From the IMG/VR virus record IMGVR_UViG_3300050156_000143, positions 1 to 64,000 of that record: a DNA stretch of 64,000 nt; one strand, given 5' to 3'. Below, piece after piece: positions 45,991-61,240 of this stretch. The stretch comes from a virus. Lineage: Duplodnaviria > Caudoviricetes. Numbering within the stretch: position 1 is the first letter of the stretch; each line of letters starts with the position of its first letter. Below the pieces are notes generated by a model, which saw only the letters and a program-made list of their open reading frames with translations, had not been told where the DNA came from and searched no databases. The position numbers and the translations under genes were made by a program.

Positions 45991-46431
45991 TTATGGTGCA
46001 GTCAAAATGTCTCTAACTTGCATCAACAGTTTCCCCAACATGTTCGCACCTGATCCGTTTCCACCGTCACCCCAGTATTTGTCATTGGTGGTGTGCTCGC
46101 ACAATATACTGTCTCCGGTCGAAATCAATAATAACCTGAGCTTCTCATGTTGCGTGAATTTTGCAAGAAGCACTTTTAATATAACGTCGTTTTTGACCTG
46201 TTCCCAATCTTCTCTAAGTTGAACATCGGGATCGCGCCCATAAGTCGCTGCGAGTTTTGGAGTACCAGCTTTCCTTATTTTTTCTTGATACGTGGGGTCG
46301 ATGAACTTTTGCGATTGATAATAATGCTCCGAAGTTGGCCACAACTTGTTATCCAATCTGATCGGATACCTGACAAAATTAGAAAATGCACCGTAAGTCG
46401 AAGTGGTGGAATAAAAGTTGATCGTTTTCAT
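45991..46431 (-). CDS. NADAR (YbiA-like) protein
   Basis: FSNF, WPTSEHYYQSQKF, LLAKFTQH, DKYWGDG...NMLGKLLMQVR. Confidence 0.92.
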   Translation of the reverse strand: MKTINFYSTTSTYGAFSNFVRYPIRLDNKLWPTSEHYYQSQKFIDPTYQEKIRKAGTPKLAATYGRDPDVQLREDWEQVKNDVILKVLLAKFTQHEKLRLLLISTGDSILCEHTTNDKYWGDGGNGSGANMLGKLLMQVRDILTAP

Positions 46432-46707
46432 GTAAACAATAGTGTAAACGCCGTTCTTAGGTCAGGGTCTGGGATATACACGTAGAACACGTTAGTGGGT
46501 AACCAGCTAGTTACCGATGAAAATCGATATGGTATACCCACTGTTTGATGCCATATGGCTTGTTCTGGGTATTGCCCAGGGCGTTCATCATGTAAAACCA
46601 ATACACATTGAGGTTTGGGGACAATAAGCGGGTTCAACTTGGAGAAGTCAAAGTTTCCATCCGATGACATCCCTATCCGTTCTGAAACCTCAACCAAGTC
46701 TTGAACT

Positions 46708-47832
46708 TCAATCGGCATAATAGTGTGAAATCTCATCTTCAAACAGCCAAAAACCCAGAGAATTTGCAATCTGAACATCAACTCGATATTGCGGGGCGGG
46801 ATATGAGACCGCAACCAAACGAACATATGGTTGTTTGCATAGCCACTCAAATTCTTTTCTGCCAGTTTTGAAATACGGATTATGTTTTTGTTGCAGATGT
46901 CTCAGGTTTCCAGGCCCGTGTACAACAACCTTATCCCCAACCTGAAATCCCCGTAGTGGGCCGATTAACTCATCATGTTCAATTATTGTGTTCCTCATAT
47001 TGGTGGACGATTTCATCATCGTGAACCCATACTGTTTCAAAATAGTTCGGGTAAGTTTCGATTTCGAGCAGATACGCTGGTGAATTAACTGGGTCATAAT
47101 CCACTAGAACTATTTTTCCCTTGGAACCAGACATGGCTATTTCTGACTCGGACAATGCCCACGAGTTCAATGATGCGCGACGCTGTGCAGTATCCGATTG
47201 ATTCACTTTGAATACAATTTTGTCGCCAATTTCAAACCCACGAAGTAACGATGCCAAGGAAAGTTCGTCCATACTAATTCTCAAAGTGGAAATTAAGGTC
47301 TGACCCACTGAACCACGATGAATGGTTAAACTTGCTATTGGGTTCATCACAGTGCAAGGACTCGACGAACCCAAAAAACTCGGGATCAACATCTACCAAA
47401 TAACTATCATCCGCATAGTCGCAAACGATGACCACACCCGTCATCCCCGATTTTGCATATGCACGTAATTCATCATCGGACGCGGTGACAATCACTCGGT
47501 CTCCAATTTCATACGGCACATCGGATAACAACAGGTTGGCCACATCGGTTTCAATCATTTTGTTCCTCATAGTAGTGAGTGAGTTCATCGGAATATGCCC
47601 ATACAGTTGGCAAATTCGTGCCAAGACTGATTTTGTGACACGGCTCGTCCACATCGACGGCCAAAATTATCGCTGGGGTCATCCCAAGCCCGTTCTGATT
47701 TCTAATATGCACATATAAGAAGACGATATCCTCACCAGCGTCATTTTTCTTTCGCATTTTCCCCGAATGCAATGTGACTTTATCCCCAACCTGAAATCCC
47801 CGTAGAAGGCCGATTATTTCATCTTGTTCCAT
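46708..47832 (-). CDS. Tandem array II of family A: 47551-47832, 47274-47558, 46979-47272, 46708-~46990
   Basis: DEIIGLLRGFQVGD / DVANLLLSDVPYEIGD / DELSLASLLRGFEIGD N-termini; DE(I/L)xHYYE C-termini. Confidence 0.85.
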
Positions 47833-48027
47833 CTGATGTGTACTCGTAGTAAGAAGTTAGAAACTCATGGACTGTCAAGTCTCCAGAACTGTACGTCACG
47901 GTTTTGACAATGTATCGCCCAATTTTGCGCCGCATGCACCAACGTAGCCACAGAAAGTGGTCTCCGACCTTGATCGGCAACCATGCAAAGTGCGCTGTGT
48001 ATTCGGTGATGGGCTTATCAATGATGT

Positions 48028-48759
48028 TCACTGGTAGCACAGCAGTTCTCCTATCAGTTGTTTGACTTCCACAACGTCTTCTGCACGTCTGGAAAACATG
48101 ACCGCCCACTTGGAGGGATCAACGTAATCGTACACCATTTTCACATGTTCTTGCCCAAGTTGATCTAAAAATCGAATGCCATCGTTGTAATTATACAACA
48201 ACCAGGGACTCAATTTTCCAGACACGATGGCTGAACACAACACACTCGCGTGTAGGAAAAACACTCCAGTCATGTCAACGTCATGTTCTTCGCACAAATC
48301 ACACAATGTTTCCACACTTCGTTGCACTGCATCCACGTGATTCTCATTGCGTAAAAATGTAACTAAAAATTGCGTGTAGGTTGAATCCAAGTGCCACAAA
48401 TCTAGTTTCAGATTTTCCTTGAACAAATGATCTAGGTATTTTGTTCTATTGATGACATAAGTGTTTGTGCAAAATTCCCCAAATTTTAGAAATCCATTGA
48501 ACAACTTTGATTCAGCAAATTGCTCATATGTGGTGACTTTCCCAAAAGATTGCTTGAAGTATTTTGAATATGCGTCGAACGCGATCAAACAAGGCTTCGT
48601 TGCTTTATTTTCATGCCGTTGTTTTTTGGTGCAGGTGTGCCTACTCGCGGCTGATTCTCGTTGGAATTCTTTTTTGCAATATTGACAGACAAACTTACAT
48701 GCCAGAGGAGGCTTGATGGTCGGTGATATCGTCCTGCGTGACATAAGTGCTGAGTTCAT
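48028..48759 (-). CDS. Conserved hypothetical with N-terminal C2H-C zinc finger
   Basis: CQYCKKEF...HTC. Confidence 0.6.
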   Translation of the reverse strand: MNSALMSRRTISPTIKPPLACKFVCQYCKKEFQRESAASRHTCTKKQRHENKATKPCLIAFDAYSKYFKQSFGKVTTYEQFAESKLFNGFLKFGEFCTNTYVINRTKYLDHLFKENLKLDLWHLDSTYTQFLVTFLRNENHVDAVQRSVETLCDLCEEHDVDMTGVFFLHASVLCSAIVSGKLSPWLLYNYNDGIRFLDQLGQEHVKMVYDYVDPSKWAVMFSRRAEDVVEVKQLIGELLCYQ

Positions 48760-49222
48760 ATAAATCCGACAATTTCATATTGGGGCAAACTTTTGCCAAA
48801 TAGTGACATTTATTTTGGGTGGTCACGTAGTCAGCAATGTGTGTGGCAGACGTTTCTCCAATTTTGTTGAAATATTCTTTGGCATCTTTGTGTTTAATTT
48901 TTTCCCTAAACTTGGTGTATTTTGTTGACAACTGTGGAATCCACTGATGCTTCAACATTGTTCCCAAACTGGCTGAACACAGTAACTGCCATTGTAAGGT
49001 CGGGTGACGACCAATTGTCGAACTAAACATCAAGTCGTTGATGTGATTGTATCCTCGAACCTGATACTCCTGTGTGTCCTGATTGCCTGTGACTGAACTA
49101 AGCCAGATCATCATAGTGTATGGGGCAAATTTACGTTGTTCTTCTATGGGCAATGATGCCAGGTATCCATACGATTTTGAATCGATGGCGGTCAATACTG
49201 GGAATAAATTGAAGTCACTCAT
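48695..49222 (-). CDS. Possible clamp-loader small subunit-like protein
   Basis: LTAIDSK...FAPYTMMIWLSSV...HPTLQWQLL recalls gp62-like proteins; tentative. Confidence 0.4.
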   Translation of the reverse strand: MSDFNLFPVLTAIDSKSYGYLASLPIEEQRKFAPYTMMIWLSSVTGNQDTQEYQVRGYNHINDLMFSSTIGRHPTLQWQLLCSASLGTMLKHQWIPQLSTKYTKFREKIKHKDAKEYFNKIGETSATHIADYVTTQNKCHYLAKVCPNMKLSDLYELSTYVTQDDITDHQASSGM

Positions 49223-51873
49223 TAGTCGTTTTGTCGGGAAAGTGGAATTTAAGTTCTTCATCAAAGTACATATAACAGATGGCACCAACCATGACGTAAT
49301 TTGCCAGCCATGTTTTATGCACTATTTTTCCGACAAAGCCCGCATTGGTTCTCACCGTGTCTCCCACCTCGAATTCCGCGTCTGAAAGGAGCATTTGAGC
49401 CACATCGTCTTCATCATGTTCAATCATTTTGATCCTCATAGTAATGGGAAATTTCGTCAGAATATACCCAAACATTGGGCGAACTCGGGCTGAAGTTGAT
49501 TTTGTAACACGGTTCTTCCAAATCGACTGCCAAAATTCGCGCATGAACTAAACGTTGTCTAATGCGTAACCGGTTGAAGAGGTCATCATCCACTACGTTA
49601 TCAGTTTTTCGCATTTTCCCCGAATGCAATGTGACATTATCACCAATTTCAAACCCACGTAGAAGGCCGATTATTTCATCGTGTTCAGTCATTTCGATCC
49701 TCATAGTAATGGGCGATTTCGTCTTCCCAAAGCCAAAACTGTTCACCTGTGTAGTCCACTGAAACGACCCCAATACCATATTGTGGGCATGGATACATGA
49801 TGTCTGTCAATTCCACATATGGTTGCTGAACTAGCCAATCGAATATACGTTGGTAATCAGGTTCTCTCAGTTTCGGAACGCTTGGTTCACGTACAACAAT
49901 TTTGTCCCCCACGCAAAAGCCCCGTAGAAGGCCGATTATTTCATCGTGTTCAATCACGTTGATCTCCAAAATGGTGAGTAATTTCATGTGGATATACCCA
50001 CCACCAGCCAATGTCTTGTGTCCGACATGCAATCGATGGGTATGGGTGCTCTGGTGGCACATCAAGGACATCGGTTATGGTTCCCGTGCGCCCCTCGAAC
50101 CGTCTTAGGCGTTGTTGTCTAATAATTTGTCGAGATTCGACGGCGGGTTCAAATGCGAGTCTCCGTGAGTAATCCAGATGAAATACGACTTCATCCCCAG
50201 CGCAAAAGCCCCTCAATATGCCGATCAACTCATCTTGGTTCATGATAGGGTAGAAGATTTAACGAACAAATTTAGATCGGCAGCGGTAGCGAATTCCAAT
50301 GAAAGTTCATGGACAAAAACACAACAGTTGCCATCCCTTAAATCTTGAAACACTTCAACCCGCATGCAACTAACCGTGAAAGGAACGCTAAAGACACATG
50401 CGTGCATGGTGTTATCAATGTACCCACGTATTTGCGCCAAATCGTATTGGAATGAATTTCCATCCACAAAAAATCGCGGAATTAATTCAAACCGATCTAG
50501 CAATTCATCCGCAGTGAAAGTAATCGTGCGTGTCATTCCGGGAAATAGTGTTTACAATAATTGATATGAGTGACAATCACGATGTCGGCCCACGCTGGCG
50601 AGTCCAAAATAATTGACACGTTTTCCCCATCAGATTCGACAACGGTTCCTGCATATTTTTCACCACAGTAGTCATACATGATGGGATCACCTTCGTCAAA
50701 TGGTGTGCCATCGATCAGTAAACTTGCTAACTTATTTTCATTCATGATGCACCTTGATCAAAAAAGTATTCCAAATCGTTGCGTGTATACCATAAACACA
50801 ACTTCTGATAAGTTAGTTTGGAATCAAATACGATCTGAATTTCCATGCCTCTTACGATAGCAGCTACCGTTCCGACTAATCCATTCCCATCAAACTGATC
50901 GTCTGCATTCTTGCCAATCGCCATCATTGCCACTGTATCTGGGTCAGCTTTGACCCTTATCCGGTCTCCGATCTCGAACTGTACATCGGATAACAACAGG
51001 TTGGCTAAATCGGTTTCAGTCATTTTGTTCCTCATAGTAGTGAGTGAGTTCATCTTCAAATGCCCACATTGTTCTAGTCGTAAATCTGACCTGAATTGGC
51101 GCCGATCCGGGAGGTTCCGTGTATATTCTAATCACCACGCAACCCCGTCCATCTAGACTACTGGCTAATTCAGCGTCGTGAATCCCAAATACTCGTCGAT
51201 CTGTTCTCCTGGAAGCATCGAAGTGATAAATTACTTCATCACCAACTTCAAACCCACGTAGTAACGATGCCAAAGAAAGTTCGTCCATGATGCACCTCAC
51301 AGTGAAAACTGTTGTCTAAATGATGATAGCCCATTATCCGAATCAAACTGTAAGACCAATTCTATAATTCGCACAGTTATTTTTGGTTTAATGACATAGC
51401 GGTCACCCTCTGGGGTCACCACTATCCCTGGCACACTAGATTGCTCTATCTCAACTGTATGTTTAACCACGCTCCCGCCGTATTCCGACAATTTAATCGA
51501 CACTGCATCTAGGTAAAATTTGTCGATGTGTGTTCGCATGTTCTCAAGCCCAGACATGTATGTGGTAAACGATGTTGGCGGGCCAAATATTTTAAACAAT
51601 GCCAGACGACGCAATATCATCGTCGATTTTTGGTCAGTTTTCATAATAGTGAGTAATTTCATCGGAAAATACCCACTCACGCAATGTATTGTGCTCAATC
51701 CGGTATCGTGGCTCACTGTCATCACAATCAACGATCCTCCAATAGACACCCGTTAGTGGTAGTGCGTATCGCCACGATATATCGTGGTATTCCCGCATTT
51801 CACCTGGCCACACCGTCACCGTGTCCCCTACGCAAAACCCCCGTAGTAGACCGATCATTTCATCTTGTTCCAC
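49215..51873 (-). CDS. Tandem array III of family A (8 copies: 49215-49427, 49420-49692, 49685-49957, 49950-50243, 50533-50745, 50742-51023, 51016-51288, 51634-51873) with two family B-like genes interleaved
   Basis: Conserved termini, mostly 8-nt overlaps, repeated DNA blocks. Confidence 0.85.
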
Positions 51874-53058
51874 ATCGTTTCCTCGTGTTAACTGAATAGT
51901 AGTTCAAACGCAGTTCTCATGGTCGTATCCGCAATAAACACGTAACACCCCATGATGTTCTCATCGGAATGAATAAAAGTCTTTGACCATAACGAAATGC
52001 AGCCCAAATCTATCAAGTATTGTTGAGCCAATAACAGCTTTTCCCATTCGTGTAGTGAATAGCAAAGTTTTATTGTTTGATCCAAGGGCACATCAACGGG
52101 TGAATCCAAAATGAAGTCATCATAAAACCACGGTGGTGCCCACGATGGATGAGGATAAACTTCAACAGTTTTGGTCACATGCCGTACCTTAAACTTTGGG
52201 ATTTGGTGGCAAATGAGTGAGAGGTTGATTTATTGCCACTTACCATGAGATGATGCGTCGTGCAAGATGCTGGTAATATCAATACTATCAAAATGGCCGC
52301 AAGAATCGGGTTCAAGGTGCCTCCATCGTGTTTGCCATCATTCCCGCTCGCATGGCGTCGATCAACGTATTATACGGGGCGGCGTTCTCATATTGAGTTC
52401 CAACACCAATCTGAGGAAACCACGCATTGCGAACGTTTGCCATAAAAGAGTTCACCACCACAAACTTCACCCATTCCTTCAACACTTCATCGCCATCGGC
52501 TGTGGCAATCGCATCCGCAATACTGACCAGCACATTGGTCTCCCACTGGCGAAGTAAGCATTTCAAATAGTCTACCACAGGATCACGTGAATCACGTTGC
52601 CGAATCGACCCAGAGGCACTGCTTAGTTGCGCAATCCCGACAGTATATTCACCAACAGTGAACTCATGATGTTCAACAATGTGATCCCAAACTTGTTGAT
52701 GAATAAGCGCAAAATGTAACCTACCTCGACCCATCTCGGTATTCACAAATAGTTTTCTGTCATGATCCATTTGAAATAAGATGGAAAAATCCATTGACTC
52801 ATTTTGTTCAACCAAGTTTTCACGTGCGTAATTTAGCACCAATGCCGCACCCGACCCCCAGATATTTTCCACCCCGCCGTAACCATCATATTCACCATAA
52901 CACGGTGTTTTTATGGGGATATAATGAGACTCAGGGTAACACAAATCGGTGGTAAATGTGTTTTGCACCATCGCCACAATGACCACAGATTGGCCCTGAA
53001 TGATTGGCAAATGTGAAATAGCGCATGTTTGATTCCAGTACCCCACAATACCCCCGTG

Positions 53059-53559
53059 TTAAAAACACTGACTAAAATCGACTATTTCACTGTTGCGTGA
53101 CACGTCTTGAACAAAATACACACATTTTGGTTTATGTGAATTCTCGATCGGCACACACAGGTATTGGCCACTTTTCAACTTTGGGCTGCACCAGTCTACA
53201 TCATGATACACGTCGAGTACCTCAATTTCTGGAAAAGATGGTCTAAACCCGGATAATGGATTCAACTCAAATGCCTTGAAACCACGATCATTGATGCTGG
53301 TAAGAGGCAATGCTTCGAGGTCTCCAACTTCAGGGTCTCCAATCAGTATTTGCCAGTTTAGGGGCATTTTGATCACATGAGTACCAATTCTTAGCACCAA
53401 AGCTGGCGCCTTGAACGTCTCCAATAGGATCAACTGTGAAAAAAAGTAATCCACATCTTTGGGGTTACTATTATCCAAAATTGCATATCTAAGGTCGCCC
53501 ACATCATTCGGAACAAAATCTAGACACATGGTCTGATTTTCAATCGTTAGTATATTCAC
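53059..53559 (-). CDS. Conserved hypothetical protein coupled to uvsW
   Basis: 166-aa ORF overlapping the uvsW stop. Confidence 0.6.
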   Translation of the reverse strand: MNILTIENQTMCLDFVPNDVGDLRYAILDNSNPKDVDYFFSQLILLETFKAPALVLRIGTHVIKMPLNWQILIGDPEVGDLEALPLTSINDRGFKAFELNPLSGFRPSFPEIEVLDVYHDVDWCSPKLKSGQYLCVPIENSHKPKCVYFVQDVSRNSEIVDFSQCF

Positions 53560-55028
53560 TTATAATTCACTTTCTCGATATCAAACGGATACTGAGCATT
53601 TTTGTAAAATTCCTTACGTTTGGTAAGGTGGCGTTTAGCAAATTTGCAACTTGAGGTGATATCGTAAATTTGGACAAAGTTCTTGTCTTCTGTTCTACGT
53701 ATTCCTCGGCCTATACTCTGGATAACTCTTACGAACGATTTGCCAGGTTCAATCAAAACCACATTGAAAATTCTCGGGGCGTTGATACCAACCGCTGCTA
53801 CCCCATAAGTCGCTATCGTAATCTGGTTATTGCTGGTGGCGATGGATTCATATTCGTCTTTTCTATCTGCCTGTTTCATCTTGCCACTTACAAAAGTGAC
53901 TTCAGGCTTGTTGTACAAGCTGGTCTCCGATGAGAGCATGATTTGTAACATTTTGCCAGCTTCGATTCTATCCACCAGCACCAGTGTGTTTCCACTGTTT
54001 TTTATGTCCAAAATCTGTTTAGCAATGACCTCCATTCTGGACACATCTTCTACCAAAAATTTCAACTCGGCTTGGTAATTGCCGAATTCTCGCTGGTCTT
54101 GTAATTGCAGTATCTTTACATGGCAATCGGACAATACCTTTTTATCTTGTAGTTGCTTTGCAGTGAGTTTGTTTGTGACCGGGCCAATAGATGTTATCAA
54201 AGATGTGTAATCTATTTTCTCCGGCGGAATCGTCCCCGTTAGCCCCAATCTGATGGGTATCTTTGCCATACAACCACAGAGCATGCTTCTGAGTTTATTG
54301 GCCTTTGCGCTGTGGGTTTCATCCACTATGACACATATTACCCCGTCTAGGAACTCACTATTATCAACTAGCGCGGTTCCCTTGATAATAATGTCAATAC
54401 TCTGCCAGGTGCAAATGACGTGTGTGTGGTTTGCCTCTTTTCTATCCCCGTAGTAAACCCCGACATCGAGTCCAAGGTTTATATAATCGGCCTCGGTCTG
54501 TTCTACTAAACTCTTGTTTGGAACTATGACAATCGATCTGCCATATTGTTGAACCATGAGGCTCACCGCCGCAGTGATCAGGGTTTTGCCAGCAGATGTT
54601 GCCAGTTCTTGAATGCACTGGCGATTGGTTAGAAAGTCGTTTACGGCGGTAACTTGATAGTCTCTGAGCATCACGGGCTTGCCAGCCGCTGGGTGTTTCT
54701 CTGGCCAGACAATGTGTGCAAAAGAATCTTCTCGTATGGGATCAAAGTGCATGTCATGTGAGTAATCACGCAAATCGTCCAATTCAAGTTGGTAATTCCG
54801 TTTCTCCAAAATTGGGATAATTTCAGACAACAAATTGATATAGGTTGTCCCGTTAGCGTTGAAAAACGCTGTTTTGCCGTTCCAGCGTCCAAGTCTCACG
54901 CTGGGCATAAACCTGGCGCTAGGAATTTCATATTCAAATTGTCTTTGCAACAGTGATTTAGTTTGTGGGTCTAATCCTGTAATACGGCAATTTACTTCAT
55001 CTAGTATTTGTATGGTGCAGTTGGGCAT
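53556..55028 (-). CDS. uvsW: UvsW-like SF2 DNA helicase
   Basis: LRDYQ, ATSAGKT, IVDETH, GLTGT, QSIGRGIR. Confidence 0.93.
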   Translation of the reverse strand: MPNCTIQILDEVNCRITGLDPQTKSLLQRQFEYEIPSARFMPSVRLGRWNGKTAFFNANGTTYINLLSEIIPILEKRNYQLELDDLRDYSHDMHFDPIREDSFAHIVWPEKHPAAGKPVMLRDYQVTAVNDFLTNRQCIQELATSAGKTLITAAVSLMVQQYGRSIVIVPNKSLVEQTEADYINLGLDVGVYYGDRKEANHTHVICTWQSIDIIIKGTALVDNSEFLDGVICVIVDETHSAKANKLRSMLCGCMAKIPIRLGLTGTIPPEKIDYTSLITSIGPVTNKLTAKQLQDKKVLSDCHVKILQLQDQREFGNYQAELKFLVEDVSRMEVIAKQILDIKNSGNTLVLVDRIEAGKMLQIMLSSETSLYNKPEVTFVSGKMKQADRKDEYESIATSNNQITIATYGVAAVGINAPRIFNVVLIEPGKSFVRVIQSIGRGIRRTEDKNFVQIYDITSSCKFAKRHLTKRKEFYKNAQYPFDIEKVNYK

Positions 55029-56648: not shown

Positions 56649-57380
56649 TTAATGGCATTTTGTATTCCTTATTTGATTCAATGCTCGGCGAATGGCACTT
56701 TGATCTTTTACCTCAATCCACCCGTCTTGTTCATATTCCTGCACTTTTGCTTGTGTTGTTTTTCTGCACATATCTGCGTTCACCATATATGCGGGTTTTG
56801 TAGCAATACGTTGGTCAAAAGTCTGTGTCCATTCTGTTAAAGACGGTGCTTGCCGCTTTGGAAACTTTCTGACACAAGATTGGTCGTAATTTGTGAACCA
56901 CACCATTTCATCGGGATGGTTAGTTTTAGAGGCATATCTGTAATTGCCAGTAGACACCAAAACTTCTGCTTCACCTTGGGGCACACTTTGAATTACACCG
57001 TTCACATCGATTATTTTCACTTTGCCCTTGAACCGTGCAGAAGTCGATTCGGCCACTAACAGCCGTGCTCGCTCATACTGTCGAGAGAATTTTGCAGTGC
57101 CTGTGGCTCCACGTAGTAGAACAAATGCACACGCCATTTTGGAACTAGCTTGACCCGACGTGATTTTTGTCAGGATGTAATGACACACAAAATGCTCACG
57201 AGGGGTCAAATCTACCAAATTGTCTTTGGTGTTGTCTCCACCCATTGAGCGGGGGATTATGTGATGCCTCTCGCATTTTCCTGGAGAAGGTCTGTTTTTA
57301 GCATTAGCAATGATCTTCAAGTACCAGTCCAGCAATTTGCCAGGGGCAAACATGGTCAATGCAGTAGTGGATGGATTCAT
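56649..57380 (-). mobile_element. HNH homing endonuclease
   Basis: ERHHIIPRSMGGDNTKDNLVDLTPREHFVCH. Confidence 0.88.
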
Positions 57381-59080: not shown

Positions 59081-60145
59081 TTACTCGGAAAGCTCCAATA
59101 CTGGCATTTTGGCAATTTTGCTAGGAAAATCGTTAATCACAGTATCCAGCGCATTGTTTTCATTTTTATTCCACTCTTTTCGGAAATACTTGAGAATTTC
59201 ACCCGATGACGTGGTATATGCGTAGCGATTGCCTTCTTTACTCAACAATCCGTTCTTTTCCATCAAACTGAACATCCCCGAATACAAACTGAGGCCAGTA
59301 TCATATGGAATATGCACTTCAATGTCTTCAAACGGTTTGGCATACCGTGTTTTCATGATCTTACATCCTGCACGAATGCCAAGAACATCTGTGGTCTTAT
59401 TGCCATCAGTATCTTCTTTTAGTTTTAATTTCTTCATCGCAATCACAATGCTTGCAGCATAGACTGCACCCTGACCACCACTGATTTTATCATCCGGGCT
59501 ATACGGGTCTTGTGAAGCATAGGTGTGATTTGTGCAAACCATCCCCAGATTCAACTCACCAAACATGTTAACACAGTTGCGAACCAAGGCTGCCAACGCT
59601 TTTGGCTTACGCCCCATGTCACCTTTTAAATCACCGTCTTCAAACTGTTTAACATCAGTTGGGGTCATTAGCATCCCCAAACTGTCAATCACGATCAACA
59701 CCTTTTGGCGATCTTCAACCGGGGTTTCTCGGTATAAGGCAACAAATTCAGTGATAGTCTTAGCAACGGCATCAATCTGTGACATAGAAAGTTTCATCAA
59801 CTTTTCCTCACTCGTATCAACACCCAGGTCTTGTAACCAAGATTCATCCAGTGCGTTTTCAGTGTCAATCAACACCACAAAAATACCGGCCTTTTGCGCG
59901 TTTCGGACAATATTGCCTGAACAAATGTAGGACTTTCCCGCACCACTTTCGCCAGCGATCATGGACACTTTACCTAGTGGCACGCCTTTCTTGAAATCTC
60001 CCGAAATCAGGTAATTCAAAGCGTAGTTGCCAGTACAAATCCAATCTTTTGGGTCATTAAAACCAACGCCCAAACCTTCAACTGATTTTGTTAGAGTCTT
60101 GCGAAGTTTACTTACATCAAACGGTTTAACCAAAATTTCTCCCAA
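59081..60145 (-). CDS. uvsX: UvsX/RecA-like recombinase
   Basis: AGESGAGKS, IDTENALD, VIDSLG, TNHTY, SGGQG, KTRYAKPF. Confidence 0.95.
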   Translation of the reverse strand: MGEILVKPFDVSKLRKTLTKSVEGLGVGFNDPKDWICTGNYALNYLISGDFKKGVPLGKVSMIAGESGAGKSYICSGNIVRNAQKAGIFVVLIDTENALDESWLQDLGVDTSEEKLMKLSMSQIDAVAKTITEFVALYRETPVEDRQKVLIVIDSLGMLMTPTDVKQFEDGDLKGDMGRKPKALAALVRNCVNMFGELNLGMVCTNHTYASQDPYSPDDKISGGQGAVYAASIVIAMKKLKLKEDTDGNKTTDVLGIRAGCKIMKTRYAKPFEDIEVHIPYDTGLSLYSGMFSLMEKNGLLSKEGNRYAYTTSSGEILKYFRKEWNKNENNALDTVINDFPSKIAKMPVLELSE

Positions 60146-60229: not shown

Positions 60230-61240
60230 TTAGCGAGGGGTTGCGCCACGATTGCGGATAGCTGCAAGTCGATCCATGATGTCACTTTTCATAGCAGGCT
60301 TATTAACTTCTGGCACTACCGGGGTTTGGGCAGTGTTTTCCCAGGGAGCATCACCAGATTCTGGTGTTTTTGCCTCATCGTCGGCGTCAGCCTGAGCGGT
60401 GGGCTGTGGGGCAGAGGTTTGTTTAAACTCAACTCCATAGGGCTTGTAAAAATTGCCCCACCGTTCCACATCGTACAACCCACCATCCACGCTCACATCG
60501 AACATTTCACGAATGGCAATCAGACAAGCGGCATCCGGGCGCTTGGGCAAGAACTTCTCCAAATCGTTCAGCCCATATTTTTCAATAGCCTCACGCTCGG
60601 CAGCGGTCAATGCGGATTCACGCTTCTTGAATCCAGATTCATCATAGTTGGCAAATTCACCGGACTTGCCCTTCTTGATCACAAAATCAAGACCTTGCTC
60701 GTAATCGGACGGTGAAGCAATAGTTTCCTCGTCGTCAATATTGGCGATCAACTTGCCACCCAGCTTTTTGGACAGCATGAAACTACGGATTGGGTTCTCG
60801 GGCTGTTGGTCATCTTTGGCTGGATTGTCACCTCGCACAAAACCTTGCAAGATGAAATCTTTCTTTGGCCAATATTGACGACCAAGTTCCACCAGAGAAG
60901 GGTCTTTGGATTTGAACCATGCACGCAAATCGGGCATGATCGGGCAGTCCATTTTGTGACCAAAGATTCCGTACATTTCCACGCACGGTACTTTCACGGT
61001 GACTTCACCGACAGAAGGATCATTCTTGATGCCAGCAAACTTGATGGAAATCATTTGGCGCTCGGCCCAGTACCAGGGGTTATCCTTATTGGCATCAGGC
61101 AGAAACCGTAGTGTCACGCTGCTGTTAGTGGGAATGTCCCAATGTTTGTAGAGCTGGTTTGCATCACCCTTTTTACCAGCGTTTTCTTGGGATTCTTTGA
61201 TCTTAGCGCGCAGAGCACGCATTTCTTGAATAGTAGCCAT
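60230..61240 (-). CDS. gp32-like single-stranded DNA-binding protein
   Basis: LRFLPD, PCVEMYG, YWPKK, GLDFVIKK...FANYDES, acidic tail. Confidence 0.9.
   Translation of the reverse strand: MATIQEMRALRAKIKESQENAGKKGDANQLYKHWDIPTNSSVTLRFLPDANKDNPWYWAERQMISIKFAGIKNDPSVGEVTVKVPCVEMYGIFGHKMDCPIMPDLRAWFKSKDPSLVELGRQYWPKKDFILQGFVRGDNPAKDDQQPENPIRSFMLSKKLGGKLIANIDDEETIASPSDYEQGLDFVIKKGKSGEFANYDESGFKKRESALTAAEREAIEKYGLNDLEKFLPKRPDAACLIAIREMFDVSVDGGLYDVERWGNFYKPYGVEFKQTSAPQPTAQADADDEAKTPESGDAPWENTAQTPVVPEVNKPAMKSDIMDRLAAIRNRGATPR

Follow-up and report, generated by a model that had tools for sequence, protein, structure and literature searches.

Can the junctions between small phage genes, when they recur as near-identical DNA, serve as sites at which recombination reshapes a gene array? 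The question is raised by a locus in the first 64 kb (64,000 nucleotides, referred to here as the window) of the 277,516-bp, single-contig genome of a T4-like phage, IMGVR_UViG_3300050156_000143; the public runs containing this DNA are leaf-litter metagenomes. At 46.7-51.9 kb, eight genes of one family (A), three of a second (B) and a short related gene, C50533, form an array of at least three adjacent co-oriented homologues, and every gene at 46.4-52.2 kb lies on the minus strand and abuts or overlaps its neighbour. A preliminary description of the sequence proposed that conserved junctions bracketing variable cores act as homology anchors, allowing cores to be swapped, gained or lost as in an accordion or an integron. 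The evidence discussed below argues that the array is very probably a tandem gene family whose ends are alike through ancestry and constraint, and that general homologous recombination at these blocks reshapes it. This is ordinary tandem-gene-family evolution and no new integron-like machine.

Array differences between related strains

The relatives are metagenome contigs of the Joint Genome Institute (JGI) from three samples, recovered through exact-protein look-ups, and their flanking genes are ~88-95% identical to the window; contigs L006 and L007 are identical to it. Two contigs, L001 (5.1 kb) and L002, are collinear with the window from 54902 to 49899, and the next aligned position is 49720. 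They lack a 265-bp unit at 49721..49985, a single alignment gap that equals gene A49685 (gene names as in Table 1), and the ends of this unit fall at equivalent positions in two successive junctions. The hybrid junction in the relative follows the upstream junction as far as the codons H-E-I and the downstream one thereafter; because the match switches at these codons, the crossover of the cassette loss lies among the conserved tail codons. This supports the earlier proposal that the junction blocks are recombination sites, since the crossover is placed inside the tail block. The deletion join is also present in a Logan contig of run X2, and one sample, 3300050162, contains both L002, which lacks the unit, and L007, which has it.

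Contigs L003, L004 and L005 document a second kind of change. The gene that follows U47819, at the position of A47551, has family ends and a different core. Its first ~90 nt are ~97% identical (~87/90 nt) to the A51634 orthologue of the same strain, 3.9 kb away, and identity falls to ~50% beyond that point; the corresponding window paralogues are 76% identical over the first ~90 nt. In this single clear case, the N-block of the replaced gene matches the paralogue at 55/60 positions versus 46/60 for the positional orthologue. The same contigs, from three JGI samples, carry the segment 47193-47592 in inverted orientation. The segment comprises a gene tail, B47274 and the N-terminus of A46979. 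Its breakpoints coincide with an imperfect inverted repeat of 14 nt, at 47193-47206 and 47579-47592, and two family A genes are left truncated. Compared with the other junction copy of the window, at 50957-51054, the inverted junction shows 97% identity, and with the copy of its own strain 90%.

The remaining alignable portions of the relatives are mosaic. Between L001 and the window, the cores of A51634, A51016 and B50742 share 20-66% identity, whereas the junction blocks between them are 88-98% identical; for the A51634 orthologue the core is 58-80% and the flanks 95-100% identical, and the core of B50742 (20-60% identical) contains insertions and deletions (indels). Upstream of the array, at 52770-53300, L001 and the window are 100% identical over ~500 bp with 75-95% identity on either side, a sharply bounded mosaic such as typically arises when co-occurring strains recombine often. 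The family genes show a synonymous divergence (dS) of 0.55-0.67 from the relative, compared with 0.04-0.36 in neighbouring genes, which hints that the alleles are older or were imported and that fast point mutation is not the whole cause. Their whole-gene ratio of nonsynonymous to synonymous divergence (dN/dS) of 0.23-0.39 gives no signal of gene-wide positive selection in the family genes; the corresponding ratio is 0.02 for the X51888 orthologue in L001 and 0.12 for U47819. The joints seen in Logan contigs comprise '49950 to 47834' and '47167/51054 opposite strands', which repeat the variants found in L004, and '49442 to 49981', which repeats that found in L001, with no further arrangement among the joints. 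In run X4 the core of A49685 is not covered by contigs, an observation that plays no part in the argument.

The order of the array is thus not fixed among relatives, as simple duplication had been expected to leave it: a cassette is missing, a core is replaced and a segment is inverted. The proposal that cores are swapped, gained and lost holds for loss (265 bp) and for core replacement with a 90-nt paralogue patch; gain is not directly shown.

Repeated blocks and the anatomy of the junctions

The five repeat pairs listed in the preliminary description all reappear at the same positions and with the same mismatch counts. The longest (47518-47589 and 50983-51054) spans 72 nt with three mismatches and a second (47226-47272 and 51242-51288) 47 nt, also with three; the others are free of mismatches, namely 47750-47778 = 49607-49635 (29 nt), 49658-49687 = 49923-49952 (30 nt) and 46931-46956 = 47780-47805 (26 nt). 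Across 46400-52200 there are 59 shared 20-mer pairs, as against 0 in 200 shuffles. In the 60-nt flanks of the repeat pairs, ungapped identity drops to 17-31/60, with the exception of one flank in the closest paralogue pair (46/60). That the 72-bp block covers the end of one gene, a ribosome-binding site and the start of the next can be read directly off the sequence; at its far end it takes in the opening 12-13 codons of the next gene, B47274 or B50742.

A typical junction reads TAT GAG GA. CA. AAT GA. TGA on the minus strand. The Shine-Dalgarno (SD) motif GAGGA is embedded in the tail codons Y-E-(E/D), and the ATG of the following gene (GTG in one case) lies 5 bases past it and overlaps the TGA stop by 8 nt. 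Of the six A-tail junctions, four have this arrangement, GAGGA + 5 nt + ATGAnTGA, and two have variants of it, and the design in which tail codons supply the next SD is repeated in other clusters of the superfamily described below. The overlap of the array genes leaves no intergenic gaps, and neither promoter-like sites (21 versus 24.9 expected) nor terminator-like sites (9 versus 8.8 expected) are enriched. From its sequence, the array looks like a polycistronic, translationally coupled unit. An alignment of the junctions gave no consensus RNA structure (energy 0, 0 pairs), which ruled out an RNA-structure explanation of the junction, and no inverted repeats were found at the junctions.

Synonymous sites: constraint and probable gene conversion

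Most of the DNA similarity between junctions is the product of common ancestry together with constraint on the protein and on the ribosome-binding site. Synonymous sites point to a further component. Where paralogues have the same amino acid, they use the same codon at 56% of N-block positions (36% expected from genome codon usage) and at 70% of C-block positions (49% expected), as against 41% in the cores (37% expected). In the 72-bp pair, 20/22 synonymous codons are identical where 9.2 are expected (P ~7e-7); measured against the family-wide block average, the excess has P ~0.004.

Comparison with the related strain serves as the decisive control. The proportion of synonymous differences (pS) between orthologues is 0.33 in the N block, 0.52 in the C block and 0.26 in the cores, while between paralogues it is 0.59 in the N block and 0.76, i.e. 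saturated, in the cores. Since the blocks do not have a lower orthologue pS than the cores, their synonymous sites are free to change, and for the same reason the likeness of blocks among paralogues does not come from constraint at the nucleotide level. The preliminary description held that synonymous sites in the junctions should diverge like the rest of the genes if duplication and protein constraint were all; codon identity and pS differ between blocks and cores. The extra likeness is best explained by a more recent shared ancestry of the blocks, in other words by what appears from these sites to be episodic gene conversion. Distances between C-tails are uncorrelated with those between cores (Mantel r 0.09), and N-block distances are weakly correlated with them (r 0.37, P 0.02).

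A lineage-specific protein family with hypervariable cores

Family A proteins begin with [EQ]DE[IL]IGLLRGF.VGD or MDELSLASLLRGF and end with W..DE[IL].HYYE[ED]QND (n=8: A51634, A51016, A49950, A49685, A49420, A47551, A46979 and A46708), and family B proteins begin with M.ETD.ANLLLSD..[FY]E[IV]GD (n=3: B50742, B49215 and B47274). One alignment pattern accommodates both families. The idea that the N-terminus serves in capsid targeting or is cut by a prohead protease was weighed and not retained. The full-length profile recovers its eight seed members at E 1e-28 to 1e-34 and a ninth member outside the seed, A55446, at 3e-18. Iterated over five rounds without convergence, a profile search of the genome expanded the superfamily from 16 to at least 39 open reading frame (ORF) segments, the latter number being a lower bound, in clusters on both strands throughout the genome; these lie at 0.5-5 kb, 19 kb, 27 kb, 46-56 kb, 122 kb, 181-188 kb and 254-256 kb. 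One locus, L014 (genome 122231-122716, plus strand), holds a 162-aa ORF with two consecutive family domains (residues 8-76 and 80-118), which appears to be two neighbouring cassettes fused into one frame.

Core nucleotide identity among paralogue pairs is 26-49%, the exception being A47551/A49420 at 66%. In leave-one-out tests with core-only profiles, five of the nine cores ranked first of 2001 and a sixth ranked second; the cores of A51016, A49950 and A46979 were missed. The preliminary description considered the cores on either side of the 72-bp repeat unrelated. At the sequence level this stands for A47551 and A51016, whose cores are 31% identical in nucleotides and for which the A51016 core-only profile fails, but full-length profiles unite all members, and the predicted structures of the two proteins share one order of helices and strands. 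The AlphaFold2 (AF2) model of A47551 has a mean predicted local distance difference test score (pLDDT) of 78 and a predicted template modelling score (pTM) of 0.70; that of A51016 (pLDDT 69) was built from the family alignment and is hence not independent of the former. Both run from an N-terminal helix through a strand and a helical insert to four strands. Fold searches returned generic small-barrel matches (Tudor, Agenet, Mib, KOW and SH3; best Z 7.5, Foldseek E at least 0.02), and matches below the Pfam cut-off were to SH3_15 (E 0.003) and LSM (E 0.05). The family proteins (~90 aa) are therefore predicted, on the basis of these models, to form an SH3/Tudor-like small beta-barrel after an N-terminal helix. 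Also from sequence, A51016 is a mosaic, because its N-block resembles that of A46979 and its C-tail that of A47551.

Searches for relatives placed the family almost entirely within one phage clade. None of ten members compared with Pfam and PHROGs scored above the cut-offs. When 1.84 billion representative proteins were searched exhaustively with the family profile, 13 matches emerged, nearly all from this phage and close strains, and the superfamily profile had the same outcome in a set of 5.8 billion. Neither megablast of 46400-52200 nor tblastn of A47551 matched any of 50,697 phage records, and relatives were found neither in a back-translated pattern scan of IMG/VR and two metagenome-contig scans nor with a junction DNA pattern search, in collections from which near relatives may be missing. 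In six IMG/VR contigs with a UvsW 53-59% identical to that of the window, no gene of the family lies 10 kb or less from uvsW. We read the array genes as diverged paralogues with a common frame and hypervariable middles, belonging to a lineage-specific family.

Mechanism and alternative explanations

In the mechanism that we favour, general homologous recombination occasionally pairs the 30-120-nt blocks out of register or between paralogues. Three outcomes follow: loss of a whole cassette, as seen in L001 and L002; short gene-conversion patches, as indicated by the pattern of block similarity; and core replacement, as in L003 to L005. The array is hence polymorphic in natural populations, and its cores diverge to saturation. 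UvsX-type recombination would be the agent, and the variable cores might be host-interaction surfaces under diversifying pressure. The preliminary description had pointed to the adjacent UvsX/UvsY/UvsW machinery as the possible user of these anchors; because the products of uvsW, uvsX and gene 32 act in trans, their closeness to the array is no evidence. Its expectation that a dedicated integrase is dispensable fits: among 30 ORFs at 42.9-63.7 kb that were compared with Pfam there was no integrase or recombinase, and the domains identified were RecA/UvsX, gp32, HNH, NADAR and cytidylyltransferase.

Several points weigh against this reading. The inversion used 14-nt microhomology and not the long homology of the junctions; two genes were broken by it, and it has the look of an accident and not of a cassette mechanism at work. 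That the 265-bp unit was lost and not gained is our inference. The related strains are known from short metagenome contigs (0.9-5.1 kb) and from assembled sequence only. Codon pairs among nine paralogues are not independent, so that z-scores overstate significance, and single short repeats are marginal against the family-wide block average (P 0.004 to 0.1). Nucleotide-level constraint acts on the ~20 nt that span the SD and overlap. Finally, the majority of N-blocks group by orthology, and conversion is therefore episodic and not pervasive.

The alternative that survives best is old tandem duplication followed by divergence, with the ends kept alike solely through constraint on the protein and the ribosome-binding site and no recombination at the junctions. 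It accounts for the exact coincidence of the blocks with conserved termini and the SD/overlap, for the grouping of most N-blocks by orthology and for cores that are saturated, as those of old paralogues would be. Still, it seems distinctly unlikely: strains that are 90-95% identical differ in the array, with breakpoints within blocks; synonymous sites in the blocks vary between orthologues yet are more alike among paralogues; patches of 72-98 nt at 96-97% identity stand out from an otherwise unalignable background; and the hybrid junction already contradicts it.

We give little credence to a second alternative, according to which selection on the nucleotides themselves, for instance for an RNA element, for translational coupling or for keeping the initiation region unstructured, explains the synonymous conservation without conversion. 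Neither the missing consensus structure nor orthologue pS, which in the blocks equals or exceeds that of the cores, agrees with such selection, and exact repeats run 30-50 nt past the SD and overlap, although the fixation of GAGGA and the 8-nt overlap in most junctions, and the recurrence of tails that encode the next SD in other clusters, are what it would predict.

Repeats can also mislead assemblers, and the structural differences could in principle be artefacts: Logan contigs of the source run end at the 72-bp repeat, and the contigs of the relatives are short. This is very improbable given that the deletion junction is identical in two JGI samples and one Logan contig, that the inversion is identical in three JGI samples with an inverted repeat of merely 14 nt, and that the hybrid junction has private substitutions, found in neither window junction.

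Least probable, to a degree that borders on the negligible, is a dedicated cassette system (integron-like or based on mini-circles) with the junction as the site of a dedicated enzyme: promoterless cassettes carrying the ribosome-binding site of a neighbour, an HNH-endonuclease-like gene 5 kb away and the PeSL mini-circles (see below) made by T4-type phages (PMC2839356) would suit it, but the scanned neighbours include no integrase or recombinase, neither a conserved hairpin nor a conserved inverted repeat marks the junctions, the crossover points vary (tail codons, ~90 nt into a gene, 14-nt microhomology) and the family is spread over the whole genome on both strands. A tandem family reshaped by general recombination is thus the reading retained in what follows.

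Gene content and surroundings of the array

The block of small genes is bounded by two members of a second small family, X51888 and X46428, that share the tail RTAF.LLF[ST]; this family and several unrelated genes are interleaved with family A (Table 1). A Pfam scan of one of the interleaved genes, U51297, gave no match. At U47819 the sole clear start candidate is a GTG that overlaps the upstream gene by ~80 nt, and gene callers on related contigs picked a different frame. The canonical start position of A46708 is ATA/ATT in the window and ATG in the relative; the window gene may start at the upstream ATG (46998) or be translated poorly.

Table 1. Coordinates of the array genes, the repeated block and neighbouring genes in the window.
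Feature	Position	Strand	Description
X51888	51888..52178	-	96 aa; second small family, tail RTAF.LLF[ST]; first of block; SD GAGGA for A51634 after stop
A51634	51634..51873	-	family A, 79 aa, GTG start
U51297	51297..51644	-	non-A interleaved gene; ATG overlaps A51634 tail
A51016	51016..51288	-	family A, 90 aa; N-block A46979-like, C-tail A47551-like
B50742	50742..51023	-	family B, 93 aa; N-terminus M.ETD.ANLLLSD..FEIGD
C50533	50533..50745	-	short superfamily member, 70 aa
U50240	50240..50536	-	98 aa, interleaved, not in family A or B
A49950	49950..50243	-	family A, 97 aa; relative has other tail
A49685	49685..49957	-	family A, 90 aa, GTG start; cassette missing from related strains
A49420	49420..49692	-	family A, 90 aa; nearest paralogue of A47551
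B49215	49215..49427	-	short family B, 70 aa
U47819	47819..48109	-	small gene; tail ..SYYEY.. holds overlapping start of A47551; own start uncertain
A47551	47551..47832	-	family A, 93 aa; core replaced in relatives
B47274	47274..47558	-	family B, 94 aa; inverted in relatives
A46979	46979..47272	-	family A, 97 aa; N-terminus MDELSLASLLRGF; truncated in relatives
A46708	46708..46998	-	family A; start uncertain: ATG at 46998, or ATA/ATT near 46986
X46428	46428..46760	-	second X-family member; last of block
72-bp block copy 1	47518..47589	-	A47551 tail + SD + start/stop overlap + B47274 N-terminus
72-bp block copy 2	50983..51054	-	A51016 tail + SD + start/stop overlap + B50742 N-terminus
NADAR-domain gene	45991-46431	-	Pfam E 1e-37; directly downstream of array
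UvsW	53556-55028	-	best match among 50,697 phage records 53% identical
HNH-endonuclease-like ORF	56649-57380	-	243 aa; weak match E 3e-4, just under Pfam cut-off
RecA/UvsX homologue	59081-60145		Pfam scan
gp32 homologue	60230-61240		Pfam scan

The gene downstream of the array encodes a NADAR domain. NADAR enzymes reverse DNA ADP-ribosylation, which makes this gene, judged from its sequence, a candidate counter-defence gene. In the relative L004, the match to it omits 46252-46323, and the called ORF is just 91 aa long (NADAR). On the other side, the HNH-like ORF sits between family members at 55.4-56.3 kb and uvsX; if it is a homing-type nuclease, it could stimulate recombination nearby.

Comparison with known systems

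Modular shuffling by PeSLs (promoter early-stem-loop elements) in the hyperplastic regions of T4-type phages (Arbiol et al. 2010, PMC2839356; Comeau et al. 2014, PMC4122927) is the nearest system described in this group of phages. In both cases, short repeats between small accessory genes of a T4-type phage provide homology for insertions, deletions and replacements among close relatives, and general recombination suffices without an integrase; junction blocks flank both the 265-bp indel and the replaced core, as PeSL-type shuffling leads one to expect. PeSLs are intergenic cassettes composed of an early promoter and a stem-loop terminator (PMC2839356, PMC4122927), whereas here promoters and terminators are unenriched and a hairpin is missing. 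The repeat of the present array is instead coding sequence, made up of protein termini with an embedded ribosome-binding site, and its genes belong to one family.

The array also resembles tandem multigene families, such as those of African swine fever virus, which evolve by unequal crossing-over and gene conversion. The shared traits are co-oriented paralogues with hypervariable middles, copy-number polymorphism with breakpoints at homologous positions, and conversion patches in which paralogues are more alike than orthologues. Unlike in other such families, the phage genes are short (~90 aa) with overlapping start and stop codons, and saturation of the cores leaves homology only in the terminal 30-120 nt of the genes.

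Gene accordions, such as that of poxvirus K3L, offer another comparison. They rely likewise on short homologies and recombination to alter the copy number of accessory genes, and do so in a T4-type phage as well: recombination-driven segmental amplification of tifA in T4 has been demonstrated experimentally (Srikant et al. 2022, PMC9391042). Accordions are recent, near-identical runs under acute selection, whereas the copies here are ancient (core pS ~0.76) and one copy-number difference was seen. The accordion comparison of the preliminary description therefore does not hold, given this saturation and a core identity of 26-49% for all but one paralogue pair. Nor does its integron comparison. 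Small promoterless cassettes in one orientation, with a content that varies between relatives, are common to both, but here there is no IntI integrase and there are no attC hairpins or attC-like structures, the cassettes are mutually homologous paralogues whose own termini form the junction, and the recombination points are not fixed.

Finally, the T-even ip loci, reported on by Repoila et al. in 1994, are said to combine a conserved 5' capsid-targeting sequence with variable bodies. They are similar to the array in that a terminal coding motif is conserved across small variable genes; in the ip loci this motif has been proposed to let T-even phages shuffle such genes among themselves. In contrast to them, both termini are conserved here and the family is far larger (at least 39 segments); nothing in the present case points to capsid targeting or prohead-protease cleavage.

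Implications

A giant T4-like phage emerges from this analysis that remodels a large orphan gene family via short coding homologies bearing the translation signals of the next gene. The idea of modular shuffling in T4-type phages is thereby widened from promoter-terminator cassettes to protein-coding junctions, and the co-occurrence of variants in one leaf-litter sample provides an example from a natural population.

A bolder proposition is that the array is itself an evolved diversification device, whose termini are kept alike so that the recombination of the phage can add, drop or swap hypervariable SH3-like cores while expression is retained. We regard this as unlikely. If it were true, each cassette would end with the ribosome-binding site and start context for whatever cassette follows, and the locus, free of an integrase and built into coding sequence, would be the counterpart of an integron or of a locus for antigenic variation and would supply a repertoire of proteins for host interaction or counter-defence.

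Irrespective of this proposition, the family of at least 39 small, hypervariable, predicted SH3-like proteins, which takes up ~4% of the genome, offers candidates for host interaction or counter-defence. Should the cores turn out to be surfaces for binding, the array would offer a compact model of how phages diversify their protein repertoire.

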